The notes: generated by a model not told the origin, from the sequence alone. DNA of 52,662 bases from Clostridia bacterium (GCA_017512465.1 JAFWGH010000025.1:1-52662); one strand, 5' to 3'. Counted from the first letter of the stretch, positions 3,441 through 22,019 are shown. Numbers and translations are program-made.

Positions 3441-3869
3441 TTATTCCTCCACATTTGAAGTAATATATTTATAATTTTTTCCATTTAATACACAATGCAT
3501 TTCCAATGAAAAAAAGAATAAAGCAATACTGATAAAGCCAATGAATAACTGACTTTTTAAAACTATAAACACGATAGAGGCAATACAACTGACTATCATC
3601 AGGCAATCAAACACAATTGCCGCTTTATTGCTGAAAAAACCGATAAGTCCGATTTTGCCTTCATCGAATCCTGCAGCCTTTCGCTGCTTTGAGAGTAGCA
3701 CACATAGGATAATGCCCGCTATCAAGCCGAGCCAAAATATTATCCCGATGATAATACTACCCGCTCTGCCGCCGCGCGTAATATCATTTGTTAAACCCGC
3801 AAATGCCAGTGCGAGCGCGGATGCTCCAAAGCATCCGATTTGTGCAATAAACAAACGCTTTTGCTTCAT
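3441..3869 (-). CDS. Small polytopic membrane protein (about 4 TM), function unknown.
   Basis: 142-aa ORF with four hydrophobic segments. Its stop lies 3 nt before the start of the surface-protein gene, so the two are probably co-transcribed. Confidence 0.6.
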   Translation of the reverse strand: MKQKRLFIAQIGCFGASALALAFAGLTNDITRGGRAGSIIIGIIFWLGLIAGIILCVLLSKQRKAAGFDEGKIGLIGFFSNKAAIVFDCLMIVSCIASIVFIVLKSQLFIGFISIALFFFSLEMHCVLNGKNYKYITSNVEE

Positions 3870-3880
3870 TGCGCACCTCC

Positions 3881-4456
3881 CTATAATATTACGTCTGAAT
3901 GGATTACCATTTCATTTTTGACCAGTTCAAAGGTGCCCACATGCGCTTCTTTCGCATACTCAACTTTTCTTGCTACATCTACTGCCGTATTTTTAGGAGC
4001 AGTGTCTTGCTGCGAGAGCAGCTGTGTACCATCATTTTCACCCATAGCCGGTGAGAGTACCTCGGTGCCCTCCCCTGCAGGTTCAATACCGATGGGAGCG
4101 GTCTCTGCCACAGCCGGAGCCGGTGCCGCCTGCACTTGTTGCACCGGCGGTTTCGACATTGAGTTGGGATTGAGATGCTTTGCTTCAGTGGACTTAGGCG
4201 CCGGTGTGAAGCCGAATTTGATGGAAGGGGTAACCTTCTGTTTCGCTTCCTGCTCACCCTGCTGCTTACGCATCTCACTGATGCCCTGCTGCTTTTTACG
4301 CCCGGTTAAATATGCATACACACTTTTGATATCAAACAGGAAAAAGAGTGCAATCCCTAAAACCAGGAAAATTGCCGCCAACGAATAACCGACAATGGAT
4401 ATAATTTTATATGCAGCGGTAGGGTCGGTTGCGGCTGCTAAAGTAATCAAATTCAT
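3881..4456 (-). CDS. Single-pass membrane protein with a low-complexity Q/A/P-rich region, function unknown.
   Basis: 191-aa ORF with an N-terminal TM (IISIVGYSLAAIFLVLGIALFFLF), then a charged, Pro/Ala-rich linker and a short conserved-looking C-terminus. AGGAG lies upstream. It starts 15 nt downstream of the kinase gene. Confidence 0.6.
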   Translation of the reverse strand: MNLITLAAATDPTAAYKIISIVGYSLAAIFLVLGIALFFLFDIKSVYAYLTGRKKQQGISEMRKQQGEQEAKQKVTPSIKFGFTPAPKSTEAKHLNPNSMSKPPVQQVQAAPAPAVAETAPIGIEPAGEGTEVLSPAMGENDGTQLLSQQDTAPKNTAVDVARKVEYAKEAHVGTFELVKNEMVIHSDVIL

Positions 4457-4471
4457 CTCTTTCTCCTTTCA

Positions 4472-6232
4472 TTAAGATTTTTCGCTTGCGGTTAAGTTTT
4501 CACGAATGGAATCGTTTTTAGCAATCAGCTCATTTTTCAGCTCCAGACGCGCTCCGTCAAGCTGTGTGAAGTTATTTAACTGCTCATAAACCTGATTCCA
4601 TTTGTTCAAAGCCTGTTCTTTGTTGCCGTTAGCGCCGGCAAACTTGTTCACTAAATCGCTATCCGTTAAGAAGTCTGAAAACACTTCAAAGACCTTCAGC
4701 TTCACGCCATCGTCTATTCCCTGATCGATAACGCTGTCAACCGCAGCTTCTAAATCTTGATATAAGGTGACGAAGTTGACTGAATCGCTATACACATCAG
4801 TGCCTTTGTTCGCATTGAATATTTCATTGTAGCCATCAATCATGCTCACCAGCTTTTGTGCGAGATCGTAATCAATTTCACTGTCGGATTTACCCTGATT
4901 ACTGCTGTTCAGGTCTTCTTGTTCAATTCCGTTATAAGCTCTAACCAACCAGGTTTTCGCAGTGTTAGACTGTAATAACGTGTTGCCATCGAAAAATTGC
5001 AACAGCTTGATGCCGATCTTGTAATTCATCACTACATATGCATTCGTATCTCTTTGAATGATATTGACAAATTTACTCTCATTGGATTCATCCGCTGTTC
5101 CCAAATAAGATTGGAAGCGATTTAATTCATCCGAGGTGATCTCTCTGTCTTTATCATTATCCACAAATGCCTGCAAATAATCGGCAAAGTAATTTGCCAG
5201 GTTTTGCGGATCATCATTCATATAGCCTTGAGAAAATGCCGCTTCATAGTCTACAATCGCATCCGCGCCGGTTTCCTCCGATGCTTTTTGAATGTACTTT
5301 TCATATAAAGATTTTGAGTTGGCATTTCCTAAAATCGTTCCGGTGAGACCTATGAGCAAAGATACAACCATCGCAATGGCGCACCCCAAAAAGACATTAA
5401 ATCTTTTCTTTTGCTGCACCCAATAGGTGCGGGTGTTTTCCTCCATGTTTTCCAGCGCATATTTCAGCTCTGCGCAGGATTGATAGCGGTCATTCGGGTC
5501 CTTTTGAATACATTTGAGAATAATCGCCTCCAACCCCGGTGAGAGTTGCGGGTCCCACTGCCTGATGGGATACATCTCATAAGGCGGTTCTGCCGGACTG
5601 TGCCCTGTTACAAGGTGATAAAGCGTTGCACCCAAGCAATAAATATCGGTTCGCGCATCGGTTTCGCCCTGACCGCCGAATTGCTCCGGCGCAGCATAGC
5701 CGATAGTACCCAAACAAGTGGTATCTTGAATATTGGTGCCTTTATATTCTCTGGCAGTACCGAAGTCAATCAGACAAACGCTGCCGTCCGGCTTGAGCAT
5801 CACATTGGAGGGCTTCATATCGCGGTAGATGATGGCGGGCTGCCTTGTATGCAAATAATCCAGCACATCACACAGCTGCTTTGCCCACTCCACAACCAAT
5901 TCCTCCGGTTGTGCGCCGCTCTCCTCAAGGCGTTTATTTAACGGCTTACCCTCTATGTAGTCCATGACAATGAGGAAGGAATCCTCTGTCTCGATAATAT
6001 CGACAATATCCGGCAAGTTGGGGTGGCTGAGTTTTTTGAGCATATCGGTCTCTGCGACCAGACTTTGCTTAACGACCTCAAAGTCCTTCACTCCATCGCG
6101 GCGCACCTCTTTAATCGCCCATTGCTTCATTGCTTTTCTGTTAATCGCAAGATACATAACGCTCATGCCGCCTTGACCGACTTTGGAGAGTATTTCGTAT
6201 TTGCCGTCAATCAGTGTTCCGTTTGCTAACAT
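4472..6232 (-). CDS. Membrane Hanks-type Ser/Thr protein kinase: cytoplasmic kinase domain, one TM, and an extracytoplasmic helical domain of about 280 aa. No PASTA repeats.
   Basis: Motifs seen: GQGGMSVMY (Gly loop), AIKEV (Lys), YRDMKPSN (catalytic loop), DFG, GTIGYAAPE, DIYCLG. The TM is FLGCAIAMVVSLLIGLTGTIL at about residue 290. Confidence 0.9.
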   Translation of the reverse strand: MLANGTLIDGKYEILSKVGQGGMSVMYLAINRKAMKQWAIKEVRRDGVKDFEVVKQSLVAETDMLKKLSHPNLPDIVDIIETEDSFLIVMDYIEGKPLNKRLEESGAQPEELVVEWAKQLCDVLDYLHTRQPAIIYRDMKPSNVMLKPDGSVCLIDFGTAREYKGTNIQDTTCLGTIGYAAPEQFGGQGETDARTDIYCLGATLYHLVTGHSPAEPPYEMYPIRQWDPQLSPGLEAIILKCIQKDPNDRYQSCAELKYALENMEENTRTYWVQQKKRFNVFLGCAIAMVVSLLIGLTGTILGNANSKSLYEKYIQKASEETGADAIVDYEAAFSQGYMNDDPQNLANYFADYLQAFVDNDKDREITSDELNRFQSYLGTADESNESKFVNIIQRDTNAYVVMNYKIGIKLLQFFDGNTLLQSNTAKTWLVRAYNGIEQEDLNSSNQGKSDSEIDYDLAQKLVSMIDGYNEIFNANKGTDVYSDSVNFVTLYQDLEAAVDSVIDQGIDDGVKLKVFEVFSDFLTDSDLVNKFAGANGNKEQALNKWNQVYEQLNNFTQLDGARLELKNELIAKNDSIRENLTASEKS

Positions 6233-6247
6233 ACTCCATCACCCCCC

Positions 6248-7018
6248 TTAAATCAGTTTTACCGTTAACACAGTAATGTTATCATTTTCCTTGCGCTGTT
6301 TGTTTAGCTCCACAATCGACTCTTCTACCTGCGCGATATCCTCTTCGCTTTGTAAATTAGCAGGAGAAAACGCCTTTTCCATCTCTTCAAAGGTGATTTC
6401 GTGACGGAAGCCGTCCGAACAGAGCATGAATACATCATCCTTATTGGCATTGCCCATAAAGAAATCCGGCTCAATAAACTGAGAAGCGCCCACACATTGC
6501 AGCAAAACACTTCTGCGCGGGTCTGTTTTTGCCTGCTCCACAGTCATATTGCCTCTTTTGATTTCTCTGTTCACAAAGGTTTGGTCCTCTGTAATCTGTG
6601 TAAGGCCGACAGCATTACACATATACGCCCTCGAATCGCCGACATTCATAATATAATAATTGCCTGCGTTAATGAGCAGTGTCACTACAGTGGTTCCCAT
6701 ATTGCTGCCCAAGGTTTTGGCATGGCTCATAATTTTGACATTTTGTTCAAAAATCAACTCGCTCCATTTTCTTTCCAGGATGTTGGAATCAAACCCGTTA
6801 TACATCATGGAAGGGAATTCTCTTTGGAACCAATCTTGAAAAGCGCGAATGAGCGTAGCGCTGGCGAGTTCACCATTGGAAAGGCCGCCCATACCATCGC
6901 ACAGCACGCAAAACATGACATTGTCATAATCGGTTTTGGCCTCCATCAACAGCGCTGCATCCTGATTGACCTTTTTTTTGATGCCAATATCTGTATAAAT
7001 ATGAGAAATATAATTCAT
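6248..7018 (-). CDS. PP2C-family Ser/Thr phosphatase.
   Basis: 256 aa with NQDA, VLCDGMGG, GTTVV, VGDSR and LCSDG motifs typical of PPM/PP2C. It ends 15 nt upstream of the kinase gene. Confidence 0.9.
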   Translation of the reverse strand: MNYISHIYTDIGIKKKVNQDAALLMEAKTDYDNVMFCVLCDGMGGLSNGELASATLIRAFQDWFQREFPSMMYNGFDSNILERKWSELIFEQNVKIMSHAKTLGSNMGTTVVTLLINAGNYYIMNVGDSRAYMCNAVGLTQITEDQTFVNREIKRGNMTVEQAKTDPRRSVLLQCVGASQFIEPDFFMGNANKDDVFMLCSDGFRHEITFEEMEKAFSPANLQSEEDIAQVEESIVELNKQRKENDNITVLTVKLI

Positions 7019-7201
7019 CTGTTTTCCTCTTAATCTCTAAATATTTAATATTATAAAAATAACGAAGCAAGTTAACAGGTAATTTTTGCCGCGCACAAGC
7101 AGCGAAACAAAAATTGCCCGTTAACACATATTTATTCCATCAGGAAAATCCGCTTTTAATCGCCGGTTTGCCCTCATTTTTTAAATAAACCCGCAATGCG
7201 C

Positions 7202-7223: not shown

Positions 7224-7238
7224 ACGCTCAAGTATTAT

Positions 7239-8837
7239 TTAGATTTTAAACTCAAATCTTTCATCTGCAAGTTTAATCTTTGCACCGTTGGAAATTTGTG
7301 TTTCCACATTGGCAGGAATCATGGAATCATTGACATAAGTATGGTTGGTCGTTGAATTATCCACGATAAAGAACTGACCGTTTTTCGATACAATAGAAGC
7401 ATGGAAACGAGAGATTGCCGGGTTGCCGGTCACGCAGTAATCCACGCGGCTTGCATCCTTACCAAGCTTGAAATAGGGTTTGGTAATATTAATCTTCTCG
7501 TTATTGGAAAGTCTGAGCAAGTATGCAGTGGAACCTGCACCGCTCAAAACAGTTGTTGCATTCGGGTCGGAAGCATTAGCGCTGAGCACGGTTGTACCCT
7601 CACTGCCCGCAGGCGGTGTATTCGGAACAGAGGGAATCGCCCTTGACTGCGCTTGTGCAGCTGCACCTGCGGGAGCCTTCGCACTCTCACCGGCACCGGC
7701 ATTCTTTTTCTTGTTGAGAAGAATAATTACAACAACTACTATTGCAATAAGAGCAACAGCGCCGGCAATGATGCCGATAAGCGCACCTGTACTTAAACCG
7801 TTTGAAGCAGTTTCAGTGTCATTAGTCGTAGGTTGTGTAGTGGGAGCGGCTGTTGTGGATTCGCCGTCTTTCTTCTCAGATGTGGATGTGCCTGCCTTGG
7901 TGTACTGGATATTTAACATATCAAGTACTTCCATTACCTGGCTGATGGCACAGGAATTCGCAGCACCTTCAGCGCCGCTGCCGCCGCTGCAGATAGCAAC
8001 TGCATTACCGTTTTCATCCACAATCGGACCACCGGAATTACCGGCTTGAACACTGTAACCGGAGTGCATCAACCAGTCACCCTTTACTTGATATGTGGAG
8101 TAGAAGAATCCATCCTCACTGTTGTAAACAATACCTTGATTGGCCAAATAATTGATATTATTTGAATTGAGCAGGTTGTTTTGAACCATTAAGTAAGTAA
8201 ACAAATACATCGGAGCATATCTGGTGATTTCGCCATTGTATTGCGGCTTTGTAGCAGTAGCCTGTTCAAAAGAAACATCATCCGCCGTGTACAGTTTTTT
8301 ACTCTCTTTTTTGGCCGGGAAACCGACGCTGTATAAAGTATCTGCCGATTCAACAGTCTTACTGTCTCTGAGTTTTACCGGCTTTTTAGAGCCAATCGGT
8401 TGTGAAAGCTTTAATACGGCAAAGTCAGCATCATCACTATATGCTGTACCCAAAAGGGTTGCCGGAATTTCCACGTCGCCTCTAACGGAAACGGTGTAAG
8501 TCATGCGCTTATAGATTTCTTTTTCACTTACACGACCGAAGAAGTAGTGAACTGTAGGAATATCACTCGGGTTAATTCTAATACAGTGTGCCGCTGTCAA
8601 AACAGTGTCATCATTGATTAAAAAACACGTGCCTGAAGCCGACATCTCATAATCGCCCAAATCCAAGTGTGTATTAATCTTTAATACACCATTGGCGACA
8701 TCCTGTACCTCCTGTGACGCTGCAACAGCTGGCACTGCAATGGTGAAGACCATGCAGATGAGTGCAATCAACGCCGTAACGCATTGAATCACTCGATGAG
8801 TTTTGAATCTTTTCATCTTCTTTTCTCCTTTTTTCAA
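7239..8837 (-). CDS. Bitopic protein: signal peptide/TM, extracytoplasmic trypsin-like (S1) serine protease, TM, cytoplasmic FHA domain.
   Basis: Protease triad context: TAAHC (His), DADFAVLKL (Asp), GNSGGP (Ser). A T/S-rich linker follows, then the TM GALIGIIAGAVALIAIVVVVIILL and an A/G/P-rich linker. The C-terminal FHA has LGKD...SRFHA...TTNHTYVN. Its start overlaps the upstream stop (ATGA). Confidence 0.85.
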   Translation of the reverse strand: MKKGEKKMKRFKTHRVIQCVTALIALICMVFTIAVPAVAASQEVQDVANGVLKINTHLDLGDYEMSASGTCFLINDDTVLTAAHCIRINPSDIPTVHYFFGRVSEKEIYKRMTYTVSVRGDVEIPATLLGTAYSDDADFAVLKLSQPIGSKKPVKLRDSKTVESADTLYSVGFPAKKESKKLYTADDVSFEQATATKPQYNGEITRYAPMYLFTYLMVQNNLLNSNNINYLANQGIVYNSEDGFFYSTYQVKGDWLMHSGYSVQAGNSGGPIVDENGNAVAICSGGSGAEGAANSCAISQVMEVLDMLNIQYTKAGTSTSEKKDGESTTAAPTTQPTTNDTETASNGLSTGALIGIIAGAVALIAIVVVVIILLNKKKNAGAGESAKAPAGAAAQAQSRAIPSVPNTPPAGSEGTTVLSANASDPNATTVLSGAGSTAYLLRLSNNEKINITKPYFKLGKDASRVDYCVTGNPAISRFHASIVSKNGQFFIVDNSTTNHTYVNDSMIPANVETQISNGAKIKLADERFEFKI

Positions 8838-10054
8838 TTTAAATGAAATACGAATACTTCATTTGCTAATATTATTTCATCCCCGTCAAAAACTTGTACC
8901 GAGGAGTTTGCCTGAATCATATCGCCATTGACATAAGTATGATTTGTCGAGTTTTTATCAATTACAAAATAATCATTTCCGATTACGGTGATTTCCGCAT
9001 GACAACGGCTGACTGCATTGTTGTCGGCAATAGTATAATCGGTGCTGTCATAACTCTTGCCGATAAGAAAACTGCGCTTGGTAATATAAATCTTTTCGTT
9101 GGTGGCTTTGCGCACTAAATTCGGTGTGTTGAAGTTATTCATGCCGCCGCCTAAAACAGAGGTCTCTCCATAGTTAGTAAAACCCAATAAAGTGGTTTCA
9201 CCAAAATCGGATTCCGGATCCGGCAAAACAGTTTCATCTGCAGGCGATACCATTGTATCTTCCGTATCTTCTGCCTGCTCCTGCTCTGCCTGCTCTGCCG
9301 CAGGTTCTGCCAAAGTTTCCTCTTGCACAGAAGCTTCCGCCGTCTCTTCCGGGTGCTCTGATGCGGGTTTATCGATTGCCTCTTGTTCGGGCAATGCATC
9401 TTTCGCACATAATTGCACCCCGCAAAGCGAACAGTAATTGGCATCCATGCTGTATTCCTGCCCGCAGGAAGGGCAAACCTTCACTTGAGCGCTATCTTCT
9501 TCTTCTGAAATGTCTTCTGTCGGCTGCTCCTGACTCGGTTCATCGGTGTATGCATCTATCACAGCCTCAATAGGTGCAGCGCTTTGCGCACTCTCGCAAG
9601 CATCTAACAGTTCTTGCTTTAAAGTGTCATCAAACTGCGCCGCCGTTTCGCTCATGCCGAGAATAAACTCTTTTAAAAGCTCCGGCGCTTGCTGTGAGAG
9701 CGCAACGGGCGGTTGAATAAATAAAAATTGCTCTCCATCATAAAAAACGGTTTCAAAGCTTGCCAAAGACGACTGCAAAAAGTCTTCTTCAAAAACAAAC
9801 TTTAAAAACGCGCTGAAAGCGGCAAGCGCCTGCTCGGTGCCTGCTTGAGCCAGCTCATTGGAAAGCAGATTATATTGTTCTGAAAAATATGTAATTGAAA
9901 GCTCTTCGGGAGTTCTTTTCGCTTCAAAGCCAAAAGCCTGAGAGTCGGTAAAATCCGCCAATGCATCCCAACGCGACAAAACCAGGTGATCTTGATCCTC
10001 CCCGGTTAATACAAGTGTGATGGAATTGGTAGTTTTATCGGCGCTAAAATGCAC
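8834..10054 (-). CDS. Cytoplasmic protein with an unrecognised N-terminal domain of about 170 aa, a zinc ribbon, an acidic linker and a C-terminal FHA domain.
   Basis: Zinc ribbon CPSCGQEYSMDANYCSLCG, E/A/Q-rich linker, and FHA motifs IGKS...SRCHAEI...STNHTYVNG. It uses a GTG start 7 nt after GGAGGG. No TM segment was seen. Confidence 0.8.
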   Translation of the reverse strand: MHFSADKTTNSITLVLTGEDQDHLVLSRWDALADFTDSQAFGFEAKRTPEELSITYFSEQYNLLSNELAQAGTEQALAAFSAFLKFVFEEDFLQSSLASFETVFYDGEQFLFIQPPVALSQQAPELLKEFILGMSETAAQFDDTLKQELLDACESAQSAAPIEAVIDAYTDEPSQEQPTEDISEEEDSAQVKVCPSCGQEYSMDANYCSLCGVQLCAKDALPEQEAIDKPASEHPEETAEASVQEETLAEPAAEQAEQEQAEDTEDTMVSPADETVLPDPESDFGETTLLGFTNYGETSVLGGGMNNFNTPNLVRKATNEKIYITKRSFLIGKSYDSTDYTIADNNAVSRCHAEITVIGNDYFVIDKNSTNHTYVNGDMIQANSSVQVFDGDEIILANEVFVFHLN

Positions 10055-10293: not shown

Positions 10294-10683
10294 TTAATTA
10301 TTTACAAATATAAAATTCAAATTTGCCAACGTAATCCTATCCTGATGGTGCAGCAAAATTTTTACATGCGGCTGTGCCTGATTACCGTTGACAAAAGATT
10401 TATTGGTAGAGTTGTTATCAACAAAAAACACATTTGCATTTTCCATGATCAATTGCGCATGATTTCTGCCCACATAGAGATTATCACCGATAACATAATC
10501 ATTGGATTCCCGACTTTTTCCCAAGCGGAAAACCGTTTTATTGATTGGAATATGCTCATTGGTATCTGCCCTTATGAGCGCACAGCCTCTGCCGGCAGAC
10601 GGCTGCGGACTTACCGAGCGCTCAACCTGCCGACTCTTTTGATGCTGTAGTGCTATAAAAGGGTCATAATAAATATTTGACAT
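10294..10683 (-). CDS. Small stand-alone FHA-domain protein.
   Basis: 129 aa with LGKS...GRNHAQL...STNKSFVNG. It starts 6 nt after the stop of the last T7SS helper gene, so it is the terminal gene of the T7SS/toxin operon. Confidence 0.85.
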   Translation of the reverse strand: MSNIYYDPFIALQHQKSRQVERSVSPQPSAGRGCALIRADTNEHIPINKTVFRLGKSRESNDYVIGDNLYVGRNHAQLIMENANVFFVDNNSTNKSFVNGNQAQPHVKILLHHQDRITLANLNFIFVNN

Positions 10684-11007: not shown

Positions 11008-11019
11008 TTGCCGCACTCC

Positions 11020-11358: not shown

Positions 11359-11372
11359 ATTGCAAACCCTCC

Positions 11373-13990: not shown

Positions 13991-15619
13991 TTATAGCGCA
14001 GCAATAATATCCTTCTCAACTTTCTCGAAATCACTTGCGGTTTTCTTTAAATAATTAGAGCTTTTATCCAATCGGGTGGCATAATCGAGCCCTATACCGA
14101 CTTTTAACAGCATTGCCAGTTTCGGAATCGCATCCCACTCTATAAGCAAATGCCAATAATAGCTGTTCATCTCCGAATCCAATGTTTTTGCCCTTCTTGA
14201 AGCAGTATCCAACCGCTGTGCATAATCGCGCATTTTTGCGGTATGAATTTGAATATACGGGTTGGCATTTGCGTATTTATAACCGGGAGAGTTGGTGTAA
14301 AACCACTCTTTTATTGAGCTGATGAAATCTGAGCACTTCTTAAAGATGTCTCCTACCCATTGGGCAACATTTTGGCAAATATCCTTCAACTTGTTCAAAA
14401 CCACCTTGGCAAAACCGATGACTTGCTGAACAATGTGCGCGACTTCCGCAACAAAAGCAAAGATGGAAAGAACAGCACAAATACCCGTCGCAAGTCCTGC
14501 AGCCACAAATGCAGTTGCTATCGCACCGCCGATTCCGTAGTTTTCATACATATATTTAATTGCAAATTCACTAATGGATGCAACCACAACAGGTATGCCA
14601 ATCATATTAAATACGGCATAATCGAAAATATTGGCATCCGCACCGTCAAGTGACCCTCCGGTAAGCATATCAACAAAGGACATAAGCGCGGCTGCGCAGG
14701 AAGCTTGAACAGACTCCGGCAATAATGAAAGATTGTGATACAGTTGAGCGGAAAGCTGACTTAACGGGCCTTCGGTTCCATGGGTGATGTTTCCGTTTTC
14801 ATCTAACACCCAGTCAATGCCACTCGGCGTTAACATACCCAACATGTCATGAACATAGGAAAAATGAAACCCGCCGTCATCAACATAATGTAAATTCACA
14901 TAATACATATTTTCTTCGGGAACCAATCCTCCGCCGATAATGTCGTGAACCGGGTCATTATCTCCGTTGATGGAATAAATAAGATGACGCAACTTTTCAT
15001 AATTCGGATTATCCTTAAACCTTTCCATGGCATCCGGCGAAAAGCCCTGCCCGTCAAAAGAATAACAACCGTCAATTTCATTTTGATGCTTTGAAGTCAT
15101 CATCACATATTGAGCCTCGTTACCGCCTTTCGAATGACCTGTGACATACAAATCACCTTCACAGCCGTATTGATCTACAACATGATCAAAATAATCTCGT
15201 GCGGCCTCTTGCATATCTGTTGAAACATCTGTAAAGCCCTGGGCATTGTCACCCCATCTTCCATCGCCGGTGCCGCGGTATGCAACATAGACATCACCGG
15301 AATCGCTTTTGAAAGCGCAGGCTTGAATCGGATCATCCGTACAGCTGTCGCCGGAATAGTTGAAGAAATCTTTTCCTCCGTCTGTATGGTCATAATGGCT
15401 TTGGCTGATAAGCCTCATATTCCCCAGGTCATCACTGTTGTCACAAGCCTCTTTTAAAACCCTGAATTCCTCTTTGTCGGCAACAGATTTATAGTTCGGG
15501 CTTTTCTCAATATAATCAAGAATATCCTTCAATTTCATATTGTTGAAGCGTTTATCTTGAACATCTAAATAGGTGAACAAATCAAGATATACGGAACGAT
15601 TCGCAATTTTACTATCCAT
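13991..15619 (-). CDS. Candidate T7SS lipase toxin 1 with reverse architecture: N-terminal DUF2974/lipase-like hydrolase, hydrophobic hairpin, C-terminal WXG/LXG-like domain.
   Basis: VAYRGTGDGRWGDN...VTGHSKGGNEAQY (GxSxG). Hydrophobic segments are IGIPVVVASISEFAI and GIGGAIATAFVAAGLATGICAVLSIFAFVA. The C-terminus is GYKYANANPYIQIHTAKMRDYAQRLDTASRRAKTLDSEMNSYYWHLLIEWDAIPKLAMLL. Confidence 0.75.
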   Translation of the reverse strand: MDSKIANRSVYLDLFTYLDVQDKRFNNMKLKDILDYIEKSPNYKSVADKEEFRVLKEACDNSDDLGNMRLISQSHYDHTDGGKDFFNYSGDSCTDDPIQACAFKSDSGDVYVAYRGTGDGRWGDNAQGFTDVSTDMQEAARDYFDHVVDQYGCEGDLYVTGHSKGGNEAQYVMMTSKHQNEIDGCYSFDGQGFSPDAMERFKDNPNYEKLRHLIYSINGDNDPVHDIIGGGLVPEENMYYVNLHYVDDGGFHFSYVHDMLGMLTPSGIDWVLDENGNITHGTEGPLSQLSAQLYHNLSLLPESVQASCAAALMSFVDMLTGGSLDGADANIFDYAVFNMIGIPVVVASISEFAIKYMYENYGIGGAIATAFVAAGLATGICAVLSIFAFVAEVAHIVQQVIGFAKVVLNKLKDICQNVAQWVGDIFKKCSDFISSIKEWFYTNSPGYKYANANPYIQIHTAKMRDYAQRLDTASRRAKTLDSEMNSYYWHLLIEWDAIPKLAMLLKVGIGLDYATRLDKSSNYLKKTASDFEKVEKDIIAAL

Positions 15620-15620
15620 G

Positions 15621-16322
15621 CTACTTCTCCCAAGAAATACTCTCTATTTTTTGTGCATTGCGCATACGAATGCTTAATTGATTGGTATATTCGTGATTAA
15701 CAACAATCTTATTGGCTATGGAATAATCTGTTTCTAAGTCATCCGTGTAATTATCCAAAAAATAGATATTAACCATATCACAATACATGTGATTGACAAG
15801 TTTTTGTGTGAAAGCATCTTCAATTTCTTGAGCAGACAACTGCTTAGTGTTGTCAACATAAGCAATGATTGTAATACCTCTGTTTAACAAGTAATCCTCA
15901 AACGGCTTATCGGCATCAAAATTACTTGCACTGCCGCCGCTGATTAAATCTTTATACGGCTCATAATGGAAACGCGTATTTTTAAATATTTCAGATAAAG
16001 TGTCATTGATAGATTGATCTGCTTGTTTGCAATATTTCACATCAGCATAATTATCATAATACGCTTCTTCTTTTTTATCATAAATCAATGTCACCGGTAT
16101 TTCCGGATATTTTTTGCTCTTACATAGAATACTGATTTGTCTGTTGTCGCCCCAAGCTTTTCCGCCAAACTCTTCTAAATATTCGAAATCATCATCATAT
16201 TTTTCATTGATATAACTCTCCATCTTTTTTATGGAGTCTTTTCTATTCATACAGCCGCTTCCTCCCAGAACAAACAAAATTATCAGGAAAAATGGAATTA
16301 TTGTTTTTATAATCTTCATCAT
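15621..16322 (-). CDS. Probable lipoprotein; candidate extracytoplasmic immunity protein for the adjacent lipase toxin.
   Basis: MMKIIKTIIPFFLIILFVLGGSGC is a signal peptide with a Cys in lipobox-like context. It ends 1 nt before the toxin 1 start. The position mirrors the lipoprotein immunity genes next to S. aureus tslA. Confidence 0.6.
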   Translation of the reverse strand: MMKIIKTIIPFFLIILFVLGGSGCMNRKDSIKKMESYINEKYDDDFEYLEEFGGKAWGDNRQISILCKSKKYPEIPVTLIYDKKEEAYYDNYADVKYCKQADQSINDTLSEIFKNTRFHYEPYKDLISGGSASNFDADKPFEDYLLNRGITIIAYVDNTKQLSAQEIEDAFTQKLVNHMYCDMVNIYFLDNYTDDLETDYSIANKIVVNHEYTNQLSIRMRNAQKIESISWEK

Positions 16323-16428: not shown

Positions 16429-16734
16429 TTATTTGAAAGCATCGGCTAAGCTGACATTTTGAGTTTCTGTTGCCTCGTAATCCGCAGCAACATTTTGTCT
16501 CAAAAATACAACATAAGCCTTAATAATATCATAATAGTTTTGGAAATAGTTTGAAGCAAAGCTGTCGAAAGCACTAATCGTTGCTGTCGCTGCTTCACCC
16601 TGCCAAGTAGAATTAAGGCTCTTTATCTTATTTTGACTTTCCAATAAAGTTTCATTAAGCTTATTGTTAATGGATTCAATATTATCCGCAATTGACAAAA
16701 CTCTATCGGTACTAATTTTAATGGTTCCGGCCAT
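16429..16734 (-). CDS. WXG100 family protein (EsxB-like partner).
   Basis: 101 aa with IKISTDRVLSIADNI at the N-terminus and a central WQGEA motif. Confidence 0.85.
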   Translation of the reverse strand: MAGTIKISTDRVLSIADNIESINNKLNETLLESQNKIKSLNSTWQGEAATATISAFDSFASNYFQNYYDIIKAYVVFLRQNVAADYEATETQNVSLADAFK

Positions 16735-16757: not shown

Positions 16758-17060
16758 TTAGTTAGCCAAACTCTTTGCAGCAGAGGTAATGGCATCTTGT
16801 CTCTGCTCATAGTTGGTTGCCTGTGTTTTCAAAGCTTCAGAACCGGTCATCAGCTTTCTCGCCATCAGATCCAACTCCTCGGTAAAACCTGTAATCTGAG
16901 CCACAAAAGCCTGATTATCTTCGCCCTGCCAAGCATCACCCATGGTGCTTGCATCCTGCATAAGCTGCTTTGCATAGTTGGAATAAGTCTGAGACAATTC
17001 CTCCAGCTGTCCGGCAACATTCTTCATTTGAGCAGGATCTGCCTGAATGGTTTTTCCCAT
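16758..17060 (-). CDS. esxA: WXG100 family protein (EsxA-like).
   Basis: 100 aa with IQADPAQMKNVAGQL at the N-terminus and a central WQGED motif. Confidence 0.85.
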   Translation of the reverse strand: MGKTIQADPAQMKNVAGQLEELSQTYSNYAKQLMQDASTMGDAWQGEDNQAFVAQITGFTEELDLMARKLMTGSEALKTQATNYEQRQDAITSAAKSLAN

Positions 17061-17084: not shown

Positions 17085-17336
17085 TTATATCAATATCAGT
17101 TTTGAACCGTTATGAATACCCAATTCATAAACCGATAGATTGATATTAAAAATGTCTCCTGTTTTGGCATCGCACAAAACAGATTCTGCGTTTGCTTTAA
17201 ACTTTCCGCCCGAGAGCTCCGTAAAAGTACCGCTCACAAGCTGAACAATCTCACTCATTTTGCTGGTCTGCGGAATAAAAACATCAAAAGACGTATTTGC
17301 TACCGGTACAAAAATTTCTACCAAAACTTTATCCAT
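17085..17336 (-). CDS. esaB: YukD/EsaB ubiquitin-like T7SS protein.
   Basis: 83 aa, MDKVLVEIFVP...GIHNGSKLILI, with beta-grasp-like length and pattern. It lies immediately downstream of essC. Confidence 0.75.
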   Translation of the reverse strand: MDKVLVEIFVPVANTSFDVFIPQTSKMSEIVQLVSGTFTELSGGKFKANAESVLCDAKTGDIFNINLSVYELGIHNGSKLILI

Positions 17337-17338
17337 TT

Positions 17339-20300
17339 CTACTCCTCCTCACCTGTATATGTTCCCAACAGTTTCACTTTTTTCGCTTTTGCATTTTCAA
17401 TCGCAAAGCCGAATGGTGCACTAATATCCTGGTGCATCTCCGTAGTGGTCTTGGAAATCTTGATATAATACTGATCCGCTACACCGCTGCCGACCCATAT
17501 TCCGTCGTTTTGGTTGGAATTGGTTTTATACCATTTTTCATAAGTGAAGGTCGAAACATTCTTGGAAGCATCGGCAATAATGATTGTCATTCCCATACCG
17601 TAGGAAAGCTTTTCAAGAACTAATTTCAGCTTTTCTCTTTGCTCTTCATCGAGCTTTTGGTGCAAATCAGCCAATGCGCAGATGACTATAACTTCCTTTT
17701 CATAAACGGGCATTTCCGTTTCTTCCGCCTCGGCATCTTTTATGGCATTATTTCTGGCGAGCACCTTTTCAAACAGGCTTTCCACCTCTTGCGCACACTT
17801 CTTTTTGGTGGTGATGTGGTTTATGTGTGAGGGCAATGTCAACAAAGCTGCCGAATCAATACACATCAGCGGGAACTCCGATTTATCTTGAATCACTTGT
17901 GTCAGGCAGCCGACAAAATCAGCATATTCCGTATCATCACTTTGCACAAAGGATATGAGTGATTTGTCAAAGTTGAAATAGTTTACTTCTAATGATGCGG
18001 TTTCCACACCAATCGGTATCTCTAAGCTGCGCCTTTTAACATAACTGCCAATGTATTCCAAATCCACTCTGTCGGGAAGAACGGGAATACTGCGCACTCT
18101 CAAATAGGAATACTTTTCTCTTGCCTCATCGCAATAAGCTCTAATATCCGCAAACAGGTTGGTACTTTCAATTGCATGCGCTGTTTGGAATTCATAAATC
18201 GCATCCGATTTATACAGACCTCTGCCTTTATACTTTGCGGGCAGCAAGCCGTTGGTTTTACCTAAAATGGAGGCATAATCCGTTTCGTCCGTGACCTGTA
18301 AAACAAAAATCTGGTTAATGTTTTGCATCATTCTGAAACGAATTGCATTTGTGCCGGTTGCTGTTAAGACAAAGTAAATGCCGTACTTGACACCTTCACG
18401 AGTCAAGTTGAGCATATCGCCTTCCAGCTCCTCATAAATTTCAGAGAATGCCGCATAATTGTTTATAACTACGACAATGGAGGAAATTTTTCTTGGCGCC
18501 GATTGGTTGTAAGAAACAATATCGCCGCCGTAATCGGCAAACAATTTTTTTCTTGTTTGGATTTGACCGGAAAGCAATTTAATCAGGTTAATCACTTTTT
18601 CCTGCTCATGTGCCAAAACCACATCACCGACATGCGGCGCATTTTTAAATGCCATTAATGTTTCCGAAGCAAAATCCATGATATACAGATTGACTTCATT
18701 TGGCGAGTATGAGCGCATTAATGAATACATTAATGTTGTCACAAAAGTAGTCTTGCCGCTGCCGGGCATACCGATAACAGCGGTATTACCCTCTGCGGTA
18801 AGCGGCAGTGTTAATGCACCTTGGCGCTGGTTCATCGGGTCATCAAATTCACCGATTATCGGATTAATGCCTTGCGCTGATAAAACGCTGCCGTATTTTT
18901 GCACAAGCGCATCCACATAAATCATTTTGGGAATCGGCTCAAGCCACAAGGGTCTTACCTTAATATGCTCCTGCTCGGCAATTTCCGCCAAATAATCGGT
19001 GATGGCATCGATTTGCTTCTTCGGCTTTGCAATGGATTTCTTTCTTTCAATTCTTGCGCTCTTCATCACTCTGCCGACACTGTCAATTACTTCAATGCTG
19101 TCATCCACCTGCACCTCCGGTTTGTCCGAGGGATAATAGGGCGCACCTGCCCAAGCGGACTGCCCCATCTTGAACATTTCATTATAACCGATTTGCAGAT
19201 AGAATCTGCCGGTATCCTGCAGCTCCGCCGCCTCCGGTCGCTTGAGCATGTCCATACTGTCGCTGCGGTCCTGCACCTTCAGGCAGACTTTAAACTTGGC
19301 ATTAGACCAAATCTGGTCATCTACCACACCGCCGGGCTTTTGCGTAGCAAGTATGAGATGGACACCTAAGCTGCGCCCGATACGCGCCGCGGAAACGAGT
19401 TGTGTCATAAACTCCGGCTGCTGTGTTTTTAATTCCGCAAACTCATCCGAAATAATAAACAAATGCTGCAGCGGCTCATCCACGGTACCTTCACGATACA
19501 TTTTTTGGTACTTATAAATATCAATATTACTGATACCGCTGCGCTTGCTTGCCTTGGCAAAAATCGCCTGTCTTCTTCTCAACTCACTTTGAATGGAAAT
19601 GAGCGAGCGATTAATCGCCGTACCATCCAAGTTTGTGATAATACCGGCTGTATGCGGCAGGTTTTCAAACGCCTTTGCCATACCGCCGCCTTTATAGTCA
19701 ATCAAAACAAAGGCAACTTCCTCGGGATGATAGTTAATCGCTAATGACAAAATATATGTCATAATAAACTCGGATTTACCGGAGCCTGTCATACCCGCCA
19801 CTAAGCCGTGAGGGCCATGATACTTTTCATGCAAATCCAATTTAAAGGAGTCGCCGATGACATCCACGCCGATTTGCGCTTCCAAGGTTTTGGTAGGGTC
19901 ATTATCATGCCATCTGCTTAACACATTTAAGTGCTCGATTTTACCCACACCGTACATTTCCAAAAATGTCAGCATCTTGGGCAGAGTGTGCATGCCTTCG
20001 CCTAAATCCAGCTGAATATTTGCCAGCTTAACACTCAGCGGTTCCAAATCCGCGTTAACTAAAATATCCGAAGTAAAATCGGTGGTTTGACCGGAAATAT
20101 CGTCAAGATTATAAATCCTTCCCAGGTTATTCACCAACTCAACCACATTGCTGCATTCTTTCGGGAGATGTCTTATCTCATCATAAAATGCCACAACGGA
20201 AAAATGGAGATTTTCCTTCGATTCGTAGATTCTGTTTAAAATGTCCGCCCTCAGCGACAGATTCTTATCAAATGCTAAAATAATATAGTATGGGTCTGTG

Positions 20301-21871
20301 CTTTCCAAATCATCGGCACTGAGCGCTTTTCTCGCCTCAAATTCATTGACTAAATATGCGGAAACATCTTTAATATCATCCTGATTCTTGGCTAAAAAGC
20401 GAAACTTTTTATCATTACTCCAAATATGAGGCAGCCATTTTACATAGGCGAGCTGCGCTTCATCTTTCGGATCATAAATAAAAACAAATTTTACTTCATC
20501 ATAGCTGTACAGCGTAGCAAGCTGTAAAATAATACCATTAGCAAAGCTCAAAATGTTGTTGTGCTGACCGAGGACACCAACGATATTGTTTTCAAACAAA
20601 GAAAGGGTAATCGGCACATTTTCAACCATATGCGGCGCTTCACAAAATGCAAGCAGGTTTTCCTCTAATTCATCCCTCTCGATTTCAAAGCGCCTTTCCG
20701 GGTACTGCACTTCCGCATCCAGCGGCATATCACCCATACCGACCTTTACTTTCAAAAAGTCATTTTGCCCGAAAGAGCGGTCCCAAAGCTTTCTGCTGAC
20801 ACTGACAATTCTTTTTTCACATTCCTGCAAATTCACAATATTCTCAAAATAAATTTGCCTTTGACTGTCGGTTTCATCCATAAAGGACTGATAAATTGTC
20901 GCAAGATATTCCTGATATTTTACCTGCCGCAGGGCCTCTTTTTGAATCCTTCTCTTCTTTTCATATCTTTTGGTCAAAATCGGCCACATAACCGTACCCA
21001 AAAGCATACAGCCGGAAGTAACAATGGAAATCGGGTTCCCGTGAATAACACCATAAATAGCAGTCGCCATGGATGCCATACCCATTGTCATAGACGGTCC
21101 TATTGCCATCATCAACGGCATTTCATCACCGGTTTGGCTGCGCGGCGGTGCATCGATTTTGAAAATGCGCGTTTCAATGTCTCTTTTAAATCGCGGTGAA
21201 CGATAAAATCTTTCATCCACTGCTTCATCAAAATCAAACTCTTCCGTTTCCTCAATCTTTTGCGGAACATAATCTGCCAAATCGCCGCTTTTTATCGTAA
21301 CGGTTTGATCGGGATTATTGATGGCAAACATTCTTTTGCCGATTACAATAATCAAACCCATCATAAAAATAACATCGCCGATGTTTAAATTTGCATAGCT
21401 TACTCTCTCACCGTTGACAAAAGTACCGTTGGAACTGTTTTTATCTTCCACGCTCCAACACCCGTTTCTAAAAGACAGCTGTGCATGTGTTCTGGAAAAA
21501 AGCTCATTATTAACGAAAATTTGATTCTCGGCACCTCTGCCGATATTCAGCACAACATCTCTTAAAACAAGGTGCTTTTTGAATTCGACACGGTCATCGG
21601 TTGACGGCTCGGCAAAAATCAAATGGGTCTCATTGGTTTTTTTGCTGATAACATTGTGAATGCTCATCTCGGTCAGCACGCACTGCTCTACCGGATTGTT
21701 TGCCTGATCGACAACTTTAATCTTTTTATTTGACTTTAATGCCCACTTTCCCTCAAAGCCTTCAATGTCAACACTCAGCTTTTCGGAAACAGGAATGCTG
21801 AACTTACCTTCTTTTTTTTGCGGTAAAGTAATGGAAGTAACCTTTTGTTGATTCAATAATGAAACGATCAT
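17339..21871 (-). CDS. essC: EssC/YukB FtsK-SpoIIIE family T7SS ATPase: N-terminal tandem FHA, 2 TM, three ATPase domains.
   Basis: FHA motifs IGRG...SRTHAQL...SSNGTFVNG. Walker A is GMTGSGKSE in D1 and GMPGSGKTT in D2. No recognisable Walker A is present in D3. The track start at 21892 is a TTG that overlaps the AGGAG, so the ATG at 21871 (MIVSLLNQQKV) was preferred. Confidence 0.9.
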   Translation of the reverse strand: MIVSLLNQQKVTSITLPQKKEGKFSIPVSEKLSVDIEGFEGKWALKSNKKIKVVDQANNPVEQCVLTEMSIHNVISKKTNETHLIFAEPSTDDRVEFKKHLVLRDVVLNIGRGAENQIFVNNELFSRTHAQLSFRNGCWSVEDKNSSNGTFVNGERVSYANLNIGDVIFMMGLIIVIGKRMFAINNPDQTVTIKSGDLADYVPQKIEETEEFDFDEAVDERFYRSPRFKRDIETRIFKIDAPPRSQTGDEMPLMMAIGPSMTMGMASMATAIYGVIHGNPISIVTSGCMLLGTVMWPILTKRYEKKRRIQKEALRQVKYQEYLATIYQSFMDETDSQRQIYFENIVNLQECEKRIVSVSRKLWDRSFGQNDFLKVKVGMGDMPLDAEVQYPERRFEIERDELEENLLAFCEAPHMVENVPITLSLFENNIVGVLGQHNNILSFANGIILQLATLYSYDEVKFVFIYDPKDEAQLAYVKWLPHIWSNDKKFRFLAKNQDDIKDVSAYLVNEFEARKALSADDLESTDPYYIILAFDKNLSLRADILNRIYESKENLHFSVVAFYDEIRHLPKECSNVVELVNNLGRIYNLDDISGQTTDFTSDILVNADLEPLSVKLANIQLDLGEGMHTLPKMLTFLEMYGVGKIEHLNVLSRWHDNDPTKTLEAQIGVDVIGDSFKLDLHEKYHGPHGLVAGMTGSGKSEFIMTYILSLAINYHPEEVAFVLIDYKGGGMAKAFENLPHTAGIITNLDGTAINRSLISIQSELRRRQAIFAKASKRSGISNIDIYKYQKMYREGTVDEPLQHLFIISDEFAELKTQQPEFMTQLVSAARIGRSLGVHLILATQKPGGVVDDQIWSNAKFKVCLKVQDRSDSMDMLKRPEAAELQDTGRFYLQIGYNEMFKMGQSAWAGAPYYPSDKPEVQVDDSIEVIDSVGRVMKSARIERKKSIAKPKKQIDAITDYLAEIAEQEHIKVRPLWLEPIPKMIYVDALVQKYGSVLSAQGINPIIGEFDDPMNQRQGALTLPLTAEGNTAVIGMPGSGKTTFVTTLMYSLMRSYSPNEVNLYIMDFASETLMAFKNAPHVGDVVLAHEQEKVINLIKLLSGQIQTRKKLFADYGGDIVSYNQSAPRKISSIVVVINNYAAFSEIYEELEGDMLNLTREGVKYGIYFVLTATGTNAIRFRMMQNINQIFVLQVTDETDYASILGKTNGLLPAKYKGRGLYKSDAIYEFQTAHAIESTNLFADIRAYCDEAREKYSYLRVRSIPVLPDRVDLEYIGSYVKRRSLEIPIGVETASLEVNYFNFDKSLISFVQSDDTEYADFVGCLTQVIQDKSEFPLMCIDSAALLTLPSHINHITTKKKCAQEVESLFEKVLARNNAIKDAEAEETEMPVYEKEVIVICALADLHQKLDEEQREKLKLVLEKLSYGMGMTIIIADASKNVSTFTYEKWYKTNSNQNDGIWVGSGVADQYYIKISKTTTEMHQDISAPFGFAIENAKAKKVKLLGTYTGEEE

Positions 21872-22019
21872 TTCAAGCAAAACTCCTATCAATCATTTGC
21901 GCCTTATTTTACTGCCTTACAGGCAAAAATAAGAAAGATGAACAACGTTTTTTCCCGATAATTATTGATAAAAACACATAAATCGAGCAAAAAAGCCAAA
22001 AAATAAAATCATTAGGCTA

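Follow-up and report, generated by a model that had tools for sequence, protein, structure and literature searches.

The DNA considered here is an entire contig of 52,662 bp from the metagenome-assembled genome (MAG) of an uncultured Clostridia bacterium; we call this whole stretch the window. Between positions 3441 and 21892 it carries 18 successive genes, all on the minus strand, and a nineteenth starts just downstream. These genes are best explained as a locus for the subtype of type VII secretion system (T7SS) known as T7SSe. Here, an EssC-family ATPase of the TseC clade stands together with "reverse" lipase cargo and with a module of kinase, PP2C phosphatase and FHA-domain proteins, and a switch built on phosphothreonine and its recognition by FHA domains would control the translocon. 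We give this reading a probability of roughly 0.8. The locus is a further example of T7SSe, from an uncultured, gut-type clostridial lineage and with lineage-specific extras; its central claim was already published in 2024 (PMC11217815).

T7SSe was defined by Garrett, Higginson & Palmer (Microlife 2024; PMC11217815), in a paper that defines the subtypes T7SSc to T7SSj. Its parts include two WXG100 proteins (TseA1 and TseA2), a YukD-like protein (TseB), an EssC whose FHA domain is competent to bind phosphothreonine (TseC), a membrane kinase (TseD), a PPM phosphatase (TseF), and two proteins, TseH and TseK, that each have a single transmembrane (TM) segment. In TseH this segment is joined to an unstructured cytoplasmic region; TseK is by BLAST a zinc-ribbon protein and has a gene at every T7SSe locus. 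The giant of the set is TseI, which bears a signal peptide for Sec, Ig-like domains and, at its C-terminus, a TM helix; TseJ combines a DUF6382 domain with an FHA domain. The same paper found reverse lipases with Lap-like helpers at T7SSe loci, proposed control by phosphorylation, and drew the analogy to the type VI secretion system (T6SS). The window encodes the following components of the secretion machine and of its putative regulatory module, given in the direction of transcription:

17339 to 21892, minus strand: TseC, the EssC-family ATPase, with an FHA region, two TM segments and FtsK-type NTPase domains (Pfam FHA and FtsK_SpoIIIE).
17085 to 17336, minus strand: TseB, a YukD/EsaB-like ubiquitin-fold protein (Pfam YukD, E 5.6e-5, below the gathering score).
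16758 to 17060, minus strand: TseA1, a core WXG100 protein (Pfam WXG100, E 2e-11).
16429 to 16734, minus strand: TseA2, a second, non-identical core WXG100 protein (Pfam WXG100, E 6e-8).
10294 to 10683, minus strand: FHA-only protein of 129 amino acids (aa), which closes the cargo cassette (Pfam FHA, E 4e-13).
8834 to 10054, minus strand: TseJ-like FHA protein of 406 aa (Pfam FHA and Zn_Ribbon_1).
7239 to 8837, minus strand: protease-FHA protein, a membrane S1 protease of 532 aa, or 525 aa from 8816 (Pfam Trypsin_2 and FHA).
6248 to 7018, minus strand: TseF, a PPM/PP2C phosphatase (Pfam PP2C_2; motifs DGMGG, GDSR, SDG and DNIT intact).
4472 to 6232, minus strand: TseD, a single-pass membrane Hanks kinase (Pfam Pkinase, E 1e-50; AIK, YRDMKPSN, DFG and APE intact).
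3881 to 4456, minus strand: TseH-like protein of 191 aa, with an N-terminal TM helix and a disordered cytoplasmic tail (no Pfam match).
1 to 3434, minus strand: TseI-like giant surface protein, of which the N-terminal 1144 aa are visible, with a signal peptide (Pfam DnaJ_CXXCXGXG and Big_2).

The assignment begins with the ATPase. A preliminary description of the window had labelled the locus "T7SSb-type", that is, of the kind that Staphylococcus aureus and Bacillus subtilis possess. This label fails, because EssC groups with TseC and not with TsbC, its T7SSb counterpart. Over the N-terminal ~490 residues, the region available for ten subtype representatives in a machine-read PDF of Figure S2 (PMC11217815), the window's EssC is 47% identical to the TseC representative (460 bits) and 32% identical to TsdC (231 bits), the next best of the ten; it is 26% identical to TsiC, 26% to TsjC (150 bits), 25% to TsfC, and 24% to S. 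aureus EssC (73 bits), all of which amounts to a ranking by similarity and not to a tree. Its best named homologues are 53-55% identical at 99-100% coverage, and all of them (WP_068673722, WP_090761811, WP_066419978, WP_254759293, WP_213117477 and WP_284036500) stand on the published TseC accession list. Judged by these comparisons, EssC belongs to the TseC clade.

Its FHA domain points the same way. The residues that contact phosphothreonine (GR, SxxH and NG) are retained as IGRG, SRTH and SSNGT at aa 116-160. These residues are kept in 98%, 99% and 90% of TseC sequences, respectively, while GR and SxxH were found in 0% of 100 TsbC sequences; Table S1 of the same work shows phosphothreonine-binding motifs to be conserved in the EssC FHA domain only of those subtypes that encode a kinase (PMC11217815). 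The preliminary description had given EssC an N-terminal pair of FHA domains and Walker A motifs in its first two ATPase domains. The Walker A motifs are indeed there, at aa 700 (GMTGSGKS) and aa 1041 (GMPGSGKT); the pair is not, for Pfam finds a single FHA domain (aa 116-175) besides two FtsK/SpoIIIE stretches. The homologues align from query residue 6-8, and the ATG seven codons downstream (~21871) is for this reason the likelier start of essC.

What the locus lacks is also informative as to subtype. No Pfam match to YukC/EssB, EssA or EsaA was obtained in any gene of the locus or in 20 large open reading frames (ORFs) elsewhere in the window. The preliminary description was right to see here a T7SS variant distinct from T7SSb; no sequence-detectable EssA, EssB or EsaA is present in the window. 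It was not aware of a threonine-phosphorylation switch for T7SSb, but the architecture, the hypothesis of control by phosphorylation and the T6SS analogy were all published in 2024 as T7SSe (PMC11217815).

The remaining core genes agree with the ATPase. TseA1, TseA2 and TseB are 49-64% identical to their counterparts in Neobacillus sp. 114, a published example of T7SSe, and stand in unchanged order; TseB is 64% identical to an 83-aa protein in the matching position. The Neobacillus order is TseC, the 83-aa protein, two WXG100 proteins, a lipoprotein-like protein, a lipase, an 88-aa protein, two more WXG100 proteins, TseJ, PP2C, the kinase, a 305-aa TM protein and a 1907-aa giant, and the gene order of the window matches it.

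Related loci permit this comparison to be widened. Twelve loci (L001 to L012) were fetched by exact-protein look-ups, and are, of course, not a systematic sample; a contig scan with EssC yielded one of them, from Lachnospiraceae bacterium V9D3004 (L004). Nine are EssC loci: that of Neobacillus (L001), three clostridial loci with 60-69% EssC identity (L002-L004), three from a common gut lineage that are nearly identical to each other (L008-L010), L011, and L012. Across them, TseA1 is 49-79% identical to its positional counterparts in L001-L004, and TseA2 57-82% identical to its counterparts in related loci. No Pfam match to YukC, EssA or EsaA is recorded in the called genes within 10 kb of the nine EssC loci (L004 came without a gene table).

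The regulatory module travels with essC. Its genes had been proposed to be coupled to the secretion locus, and the comparison of neighbourhoods bears this out: a PP2C gene is present at all nine EssC loci, a Hanks kinase gene at eight, and an FHA protein at eight or more. The location of the module changes. In most clostridial loci it lies immediately upstream of essC, in the order FHA or zinc-ribbon protein, PP2C, kinase, small TM protein, giant protein. Its place is behind the cargo cassette in the window, in Neobacillus and in L012. Since the linkage survives rearrangement, a functional tie between the module and essC is favoured. That the kinase module might be merely adjacent was rejected as the main explanation, as it is co-conserved across rearranged loci.

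The two enzymes of the module appear fully competent by their motifs. TseF is 45-79% identical to its positional counterparts in most related loci (47% in Neobacillus, and 27% in L004). Over 328 aa, TseD and the Neobacillus kinase are 60% identical; TseD has one TM segment, at aa 276-294, followed by an extracytoplasmic C-terminal domain that has no Pfam match, and Pfam finds no TPR repeats in it.

The 406-aa protein shares with the TseJ of Neobacillus an order of parts, namely an N-terminal domain, a zinc ribbon, threonine motifs and an FHA domain, and its N-terminal domain aligns with DUF6382 N-domains with an hhalign probability of 84.5% (E 7e-6, 139 columns). An AlphaFold2 model of residues 1-185 (window 9500-10054, minus strand) has a mean local confidence (pLDDT) of 88 and a predicted template-modelling (TM) score of 0.81. 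When this model was compared with the PDB by Foldseek, the top matches were the pseudokinase domains of YukC/EssB, with TM scores of 0.54-0.59 and a probability of 1.0. These were 6z0f (E 1e-5, TM score 0.59), 9qks chain C (from the B. subtilis T7b core unit) and 4ano (TM score 0.59/0.54). The N-domain of TraF from a Gram-positive type IV secretion system also ranked high, and true kinases ranked lower, with TM scores of ~0.35. A model of a canonical DUF6382 domain (P0310, pLDDT 90) matches kinases, YukC and the Rv3910 pseudokinase; it too is a small fold resembling a pseudokinase.

The N-domain of the 406-aa protein is thus predicted with high confidence to adopt an EssB/YukC-like small pseudokinase fold. 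The preliminary description had reported that no ORF resembles EssA, EssB or EsaA. By sequence this stands; by fold it does not, because the best matches of this modelled domain are YukC/EssB, and "no EssB" is true of the sequence and, on the model, not of the fold. From the model, the TseJ-like N-domain is likely to be the partner of EssC in place of the EssB pseudokinase domain. The Hanks kinase may instead have replaced EssB, but structurally the TseJ-like N-domain matches EssB better. The 2024 description of T7SSe (PMC11217815) does not mention an EssB-like fold in TseJ, and no other paper of the searchable literature mentions DUF6382.

A second feature suggests what the kinase may act upon. 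Of the 19 proteins of the locus, exactly three carry two copies of a motif of the form [G/E/A/D/N/S]-T-[T/E/Q/S]-[V/L/I]-L, spaced 11-13 residues apart:

9149 to 9199, minus strand: threonine motif pair GETTLL and GETSVL, in the 406-aa TseJ-like protein.
7542 to 7598, minus strand: threonine motif pair GTTVL and ATTVL, in the protease-FHA protein.
4013 to 4069, minus strand: threonine motif pair GTEVL and GTQLL, in the 191-aa TseH-like protein.

Among all 160 six-frame ORFs of 80 aa or more in the window, 3 carry the pair. In the protease-FHA family the motif lies just N-terminal to the FHA domain and is present in all 120 homologues compared, at a mean of 2.0 copies against 0.05 after shuffling. 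In the related loci, clusters of two or more copies are confined to TseJ-like, TseK-like, TseH-like and protease-FHA proteins: there are nine copies in the Neobacillus 305-aa protein (L001 22615-23532), six at an 11-residue period in L003 (3098-3607), and four in a zinc-ribbon TM protein of L002, a locus in which such motifs were noted at 114-1337. L004 has no such cluster.

The motif resembles the ETTS phospho-acceptor site of GarA, found in an unstructured extension adjoining an FHA domain, where Hanks kinases phosphorylate it. It also places a Leu at +3 after the Thr, and Leu in that position is a common preference of FHA domains. We regard the paired motifs as candidate sites for the kinase and for FHA binding. 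The 2024 description of T7SSe (PMC11217815) is silent on these motifs and on the protease-FHA component alike.

These components suggest a mechanism. The membrane kinase TseD would respond to an envelope or surface cue, possibly by way of the giant protein, and would phosphorylate threonines of the paired motifs in the disordered cytoplasmic segments of the TseJ-like, protease-FHA and TseH-like proteins. FHA domains would then bind those phosphothreonines, the N-terminal FHA domain of EssC being the main candidate and the FHA domains of the accessory proteins being further ones. This binding would assemble or open the EssC translocon, and the PP2C phosphatase would reverse it. Here, the pseudokinase-fold N-domain of the TseJ-like protein would probably assume the scaffolding role of EssB towards EssC, so that a constitutive contact becomes a regulated one. 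Precedents for such a switch are the threonine phosphorylation of the T6SS and the Esr pathway of Schaalia, a related route from kinase, phosphatase and FHA protein to Esx that is backed by experiment (PMC13622651).

A stronger version of this proposal may be stated. In it, T7SSe did not lose EssB; rather, EssB became a soluble adaptor furnished with a zinc ribbon, paired threonine motifs and an FHA domain. This phospho-regulated adaptor would be the TseJ family, both in its DUF6382 form and in the divergent form of the window. Together with the motifs of the protease-FHA protein and of the TseH-type and TseK-type tails, where they recur up to 9 times, it would form a multivalent network of phosphothreonines and FHA domains, written by the kinase and erased by the PP2C phosphatase, and the network would assemble the EssC translocon on demand. 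In this detailed form the proposal is tentative, and we think it rather less probable than its negation.

Several observations weigh against the T7SSe switch as proposed. T7SSe is known by comparative genomics; that its proteins are phosphorylated, at which targets, and with what effect on secretion, is in each case inferred. The accessory FHA domains have GK instead of GR, and the FHA-only protein also lacks the Ser of SxxH, its contact residues in the window having degenerated to GK and G-R-N-H; therefore, some accessory FHA domains may not bind phosphothreonine. The 406-aa protein gives no Pfam match to DUF6382 even at E<=5, nor do ~30 of its full-length homologues, and because this match is absent the protein is called TseJ-like and not TseJ outright. 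A profile of related DUF6382 N-domains (not of the 406-aa family itself) found no EssB or YukC among PDB sequences, and the link to EssB is therefore one of fold only. No TseK-type ORF (zinc ribbon and one TM segment) was seen in the window, which ends inside the giant gene; TseK may therefore lie beyond the end of the contig. Such a gene is present in L002 and probably in L008-L010, and was not located in the 10 kb viewed of the Neobacillus reference locus either.

The neighbourhoods add further points of the same kind. At L012, from a Clostridia MAG, the TseJ-like and PP2C genes are kept and a 59-aa ORF (21585-21764) stands in place of the kinase. Genes on the opposite strand follow this ORF, and the part with kinase, TseH and TseI may have been lost or rearranged there. 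In L006 (Faecalicatena) and L007 (Frisingicoccus) the module is present with no essC within 10 kb; these blocks (L006 7841-18996 and L007 7374-20851) run from lipoprotein and reverse lipase through protease-FHA, PP2C, kinase and small TM protein to the giant, and are flanked by unrelated housekeeping genes of metabolism or replication. The block of L007 also carries a WXG-like gene beside the lipase and the cassette.

Transcription is the last of these points. The module in the window is probably split over separate transcription units, to judge from two gaps (239 and 220 nt) and from a hairpin at 7205-7189 that resembles a terminator; the counts from promoter and terminator scans barely exceed the shuffled expectation, and so lend weak support to separate units. 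In other respects the layout is as first described. Gene calls and Pfam agree with a single minus-strand array, apart from small errors, and the intergenic gaps reported as 6, 240 and 220 nt measure 6, 239 and 220 nt. One error concerns the two genes ending in FHA domains, said to overlap by ATGA: the sequence at 8834/8837 is TTGA, and the ATG at 8816, behind a GGAG, is the likelier start of the protease-FHA protein, giving 525 aa as in the database and, in place of the overlap, a spacer of 17 nt. Another is the inclusion of the giant surface-protein gene within 3441-21892; it starts at ~3434, hence outside that interval, and runs off the left end of the window.

Some of these observations can be turned into a different explanation. 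The module may be a self-contained cassette for sensing threats to the envelope, whose output is transcriptional or directed at other targets, and whose link to the T7SS is genomic and regulatory only. The L006 and L007 cassettes, lying amid metabolic or replication genes and free of essC within 10 kb, are what one would expect of it; yet both keep a T7-type reverse lipase beside the cassette, and L007 the WXG-like gene as well. In the window the cassette is set apart by the two larger gaps and the hairpin, but a PP2C gene at nine of nine EssC loci and a kinase at eight of nine, in Bacilli and Clostridia alike and despite rearrangement, argue for a closer tie. The FHA proteins with zinc ribbons recall the zinc-finger FHA outputs of the Esr pathway, which are proposed to be transcriptional, signalling through Esr1 having been shown to be so (PMC13622651), and the giant protein is highly divergent between loci, as a sensor might be. 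Against this, EssC has retained its phosphothreonine-contacting residues, which among T7SS subtypes is the case only where a kinase is encoded; further, the TseJ-like N-domain resembles EssB, a structural component of T7SSb. We consider this alternative unlikely, although it survives better than the others.

A second alternative gives the kinase, or else the TseJ-like protein with its pseudokinase fold, a structural part only, in place of EssB: the contact with EssC would be constitutive and free of gating by phosphorylation, and the enzymes would serve unrelated substrates. TseD shares its topology with EssB, in that a single TM segment joins a cytoplasmic kinase fold to an extracytoplasmic domain, and an EssB-like topology has been noted for TscD (PMC11217815). 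In T7SSb, the contact between EssB and the FHA domain of EssC is independent of phosphorylation (PMC11217815), and the non-canonical residues of the accessory FHA domains (GK, G-R-N-H) would fit such a contact. The catalytic motifs of kinase and PP2C are fully conserved, however, and conserved paired threonine motifs lie exactly where FHA ligands would be expected. The FHA domain of EssC keeps GR/SxxH/NG, which EssC proteins of T7SSb have lost. This makes a purely structural role very improbable.

The last alternative, an ordinary T7SSb with essA, essB and esaA elsewhere in the genome, might be entertained because the window is only 52.7 kb of a MAG and EssC passes the NCBIfam model TIGR03928 (T7_EssCb_Firm) with 1103 bits against a cutoff of 778, but it can hardly be credited when EssC is so much closer to TseC than to S. 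aureus EssC in the matched region (47% against 24%), when its FHA domain carries phosphothreonine motifs missing from 100 T7SSb EssC proteins, when the genes of T7SSb normally cluster with essC, and when none of the three families is matched within 10 kb of essC at the nine loci, again with L004 lacking a gene table.

The T7SSe reading may be set beside the systems that are already known. With T7SSe itself the window shares a TseC-clade EssC with a phosphothreonine-competent FHA domain, two core WXG100 genes, a YukD-like gene, a Hanks kinase, a PPM phosphatase, a zinc-ribbon FHA protein, a one-TM protein with a disordered tail, a giant protein with a signal-peptide-like N-terminus and an Ig-like domain, and reverse lipase cargo with Lap-like WXG100 helpers. 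It departs from the published T7SSe in that its TseJ-like N-domain is too divergent for Pfam DUF6382, in adding three proteins (protease-FHA, the FHA-only protein of 129 aa, and a small one that has four hydrophobic segments), in having no TseK-type gene in the window, and in its host, an uncultured clostridial MAG.

T7SSb is similar in having an EssC with an N-terminal FHA domain, a YukD/EsaB-like protein, WXG100 proteins and the same cargo logic (LXG-type or reverse lipase with Lap helpers), as well as, on the model, an EssB/YukC pseudokinase-fold domain. It differs in that the window has no EssA, EssB or EsaA detectable from sequence, and encodes a kinase and a phosphatase whose catalytic motifs are intact and which are presumably active. 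The predicted pseudokinase fold is here part of a soluble FHA fusion and not of a membrane protein, and the EssC FHA domain keeps its phosphothreonine-contacting residues.

Two other subtypes may be compared. T7SSd (of Actinomycetota) and T7SSj (of Clostridium) both have a kinase, a giant surface protein and an EssC with a phosphothreonine-competent FHA domain, and T7SSj has a phosphatase and an FHA protein in addition. T7SSd, however, lacks the YukD-like, PP2C and TseJ components, and the window's EssC is 32% identical to TsdC against 47% for TseC. T7SSj has a single core WXG100 and a kinase that bears TPR repeats, and TsjC stands at 26% against the same 47%. Both the similarity of EssC and the presence of two core WXG100 genes in the window led to the rejection of T7SSj.

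Outside the T7SS, the threonine-phosphorylation pathway of the T6SS (PpkA/PppA/Fha1 in Pseudomonas aeruginosa; TssL phosphorylation and Fha in Agrobacterium) likewise has its membrane Hanks kinase, PP2C phosphatase and FHA protein encoded within a secretion locus. There, a membrane component bearing phosphothreonine recruits an FHA protein, and secretion is activated. The machine is, of course, unrelated, and the likeness is an analogy only, already drawn in PMC11217815. In the Esr pathway of Schaalia odontolytica (PMC13622651), Esx genes are integrated with a Ser/Thr kinase and a phosphatase, with a giant surface protein, and with an FHA output. There, the surface protein, kinase and phosphatase control phosphothreonine on the FHA protein, and hence an Esx-dependent defence (bioRxiv 2026, PMC13622651); the FHA output often has a zinc finger, and stimulus-dependent phosphothreonine in its disordered region has been demonstrated (PMC13622651). 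Esr differs in having MoxR, vWA, transglutaminase and a beta-propeller sensor head, and is described only for Actinomycetales. In the window, MoxR, vWA and transglutaminase gave no Pfam match in the locus or in the 20 other ORFs scanned, and a beta-propeller head was not found either.

Single components also have parallels. GarA/OdhI of Actinobacteria likewise carry an E-T-T-x threonine motif in an unstructured segment adjoining an FHA domain, as a target of Hanks kinases; they differ in regulating enzymes of the tricarboxylic acid cycle and in having a single, N-terminal motif, and we claim no homology beyond the FHA domain. The mycosin MycP of T7SSa is, like the protease-FHA protein, an extracytoplasmic serine protease with a membrane anchor, whose gene lies in a T7SS locus. 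Unlike it, MycP is subtilisin-like (S8) and has no FHA domain, while the window's protein is trypsin-like (S1) with a cytoplasmic FHA domain; the two are not homologous.

The protease-FHA protein begins with a signal peptide and an extracellular trypsin-like domain in which the H/D/S triad is intact; after a TM segment come the threonine motifs and the FHA domain, both cytoplasmic. This architecture is common to more than 150 homologues in gut Clostridia, and in three of three contexts (L005-L007) the gene lies directly upstream of PP2C, kinase, small TM protein and giant. Orthologues of the FHA-only protein end the cargo cassette at the matching position in L002, L003 and L008-L010. An N-terminal motif, N-x-x-Y-D-P-F, is invariant across those aligned, and reads NIYYDPF in the window (10660-10683, minus strand). 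In the window and in L002, Gly replaces the Ser of SxxH, and in L002 the Lys of GK is missing as well. Judged by their recurrence in the related sequences, the protease-FHA and FHA-only proteins are conserved extras of the clostridial loci, that is, lineage-specific parts.

In the TseH-like protein a hydrophobic stretch (aa 13-50) is followed by basic residues and a low-complexity tail. Its N-terminal 53 aa are 43% identical to the Neobacillus 305-aa protein that follows the kinase, and homologues occur in L002, L003 and L005-L007; L008 has a positional counterpart whose layout matches by inspection only. The extreme C-terminus is conserved, roughly as F-x-[ILVM]-[IV]-[KRQ]-x-x-x-[IVLF]-[HIS]-[ST]-[DEN]-[EDV]-[VIT]-[IL] followed by the stop; in the window (3881-3930) it is FELVKNEMVIHSDVIL, and it stands at the matching position in L001-L003, L005, L006 and L008.

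The giant gene continues past the left end of the window, so that its C-terminus falls outside. Its position matches those of proteins of 1140-2131 aa in L001-L003 and L005-L011, to which it shows no significant BLAST similarity; the assignment to TseI is made because of position and architecture. Directly after the signal peptide lie seven DnaJ-type CxxCxGxG zinc-finger stretches (~2530-3320, minus strand), a domain that is unusual in an exported protein because it is normally cytoplasmic. A similar N-terminus was not seen in the giant proteins of related loci.

The cargo cassette, and one small protein encoded between the TseH-like and giant proteins, complete the locus:

15621 to 16322, minus strand: lipoprotein, with a hydrophobic N-terminus ending in Cys.
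13991 to 15619, minus strand: lipase toxin 1, a "reverse" T7 substrate, with a Mbeg1-like N-terminal part (Pfam) and a C-terminal helical domain.
13169 to 13972, minus strand: 267-aa protein preceding lipase 2 (no Pfam match and no signal peptide).
11624 to 13165, minus strand: lipase toxin 2, in the reverse arrangement (Pfam Mbeg1-like and Lipase_3).
10690 to 11621, minus strand: three helper genes (82, 112 and 108 aa), the last two WXG100-like, Lap-type targeting partners.
3441 to 3869, minus strand: small protein of 142 aa with four hydrophobic segments, absent from the published T7SSe component list.

The C-terminal 160 aa of lipase 1 are 32% identical to the lipase-like gene of the Neobacillus sp. 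114 T7SSe cluster, for which a reverse lipase is reported (PMC11217815), and lipase 2 is 56% identical to the lipase of L002. Homologues of the lipoprotein precede the lipase gene in L001, L003 and L004, and homologues of the 267-aa protein do so in L002 and L004; each is probably an immunity or partner protein, the former of lipase 1 and the latter, as its cognate, of lipase 2. Both lipases have about three strongly hydrophobic, TM-like segments between the lipase and the C-terminal helical targeting domain, at aa 331-400 of lipase 1 and aa 314-370 of lipase 2. The helper trio, in which the 82-aa protein stands ahead of the two WXG100-like ones, is present in identical order in L001-L004; its WXG100 matches are weak in both Pfam and NCBIfam. 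The sole homologue found for the 142-aa protein is a 145-aa protein in the matching position in L006.

Beyond essC come tRNA-Pro, a 13.5-kb mobilisable island and the dcw cell-division cluster; the earlier observation that a tRNA gene and a mobile element lie upstream of essC was correct. The island (22887-36407) is framed by two direct repeats of 28 nt (22887-22914 and 36380-36407) that are 93% identical. Encoded in it are an ABC-F ATPase, a MobL relaxase, helix-turn-helix proteins, an ABC transporter (BceAB-like) accompanied by a histidine kinase and a response regulator, and, at its far end, a tyrosine integrase; the whole is probably an integrative mobilisable element. A unit of 233-240 nt is repeated in tandem just beyond the integrase end, its three copies (98% identical) occupying 36482-37187. 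The sequence that spans the 5' end of tRNA-Pro has a 26-nt copy, 96% identical (22488-22513 against 22678-22703), at a distance of 190 nt upstream of the gene. This copy may represent a degenerate or second tRNA, or else a remnant of an attachment (att) site; ARAGORN calls one tRNA only. The dcw cluster (37689-51546) is complete, with mraW, a PASTA-containing penicillin-binding protein, murE, murF, mraY, ftsW, murG, ftsQ and ftsZ, and the T7SSe locus would have been ancestrally close to it.

T7SSe and its relatives are known from comparative genomics alone, and the question they pose is how a secretion machine works without EssA, EssB and EsaA, and what its kinase does. As far as the searchable literature shows, three features are unreported: the fold resembling EssB, the threonine motifs, and the protease-FHA protein. 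They sharpen the published hypothesis, in that candidate phospho-threonines can now be named, and an EssB-like N-domain can be put forward as the likely partner of EssC; two extra FHA proteins, one of them a membrane protease, are recognised as lineage-specific parts. If the proposal is true, it would account for a switchable contact that replaces the constitutive contact between EssB and EssC in T7SSb, and would offer a handle on toxin-mediated competition among gut Clostridia.

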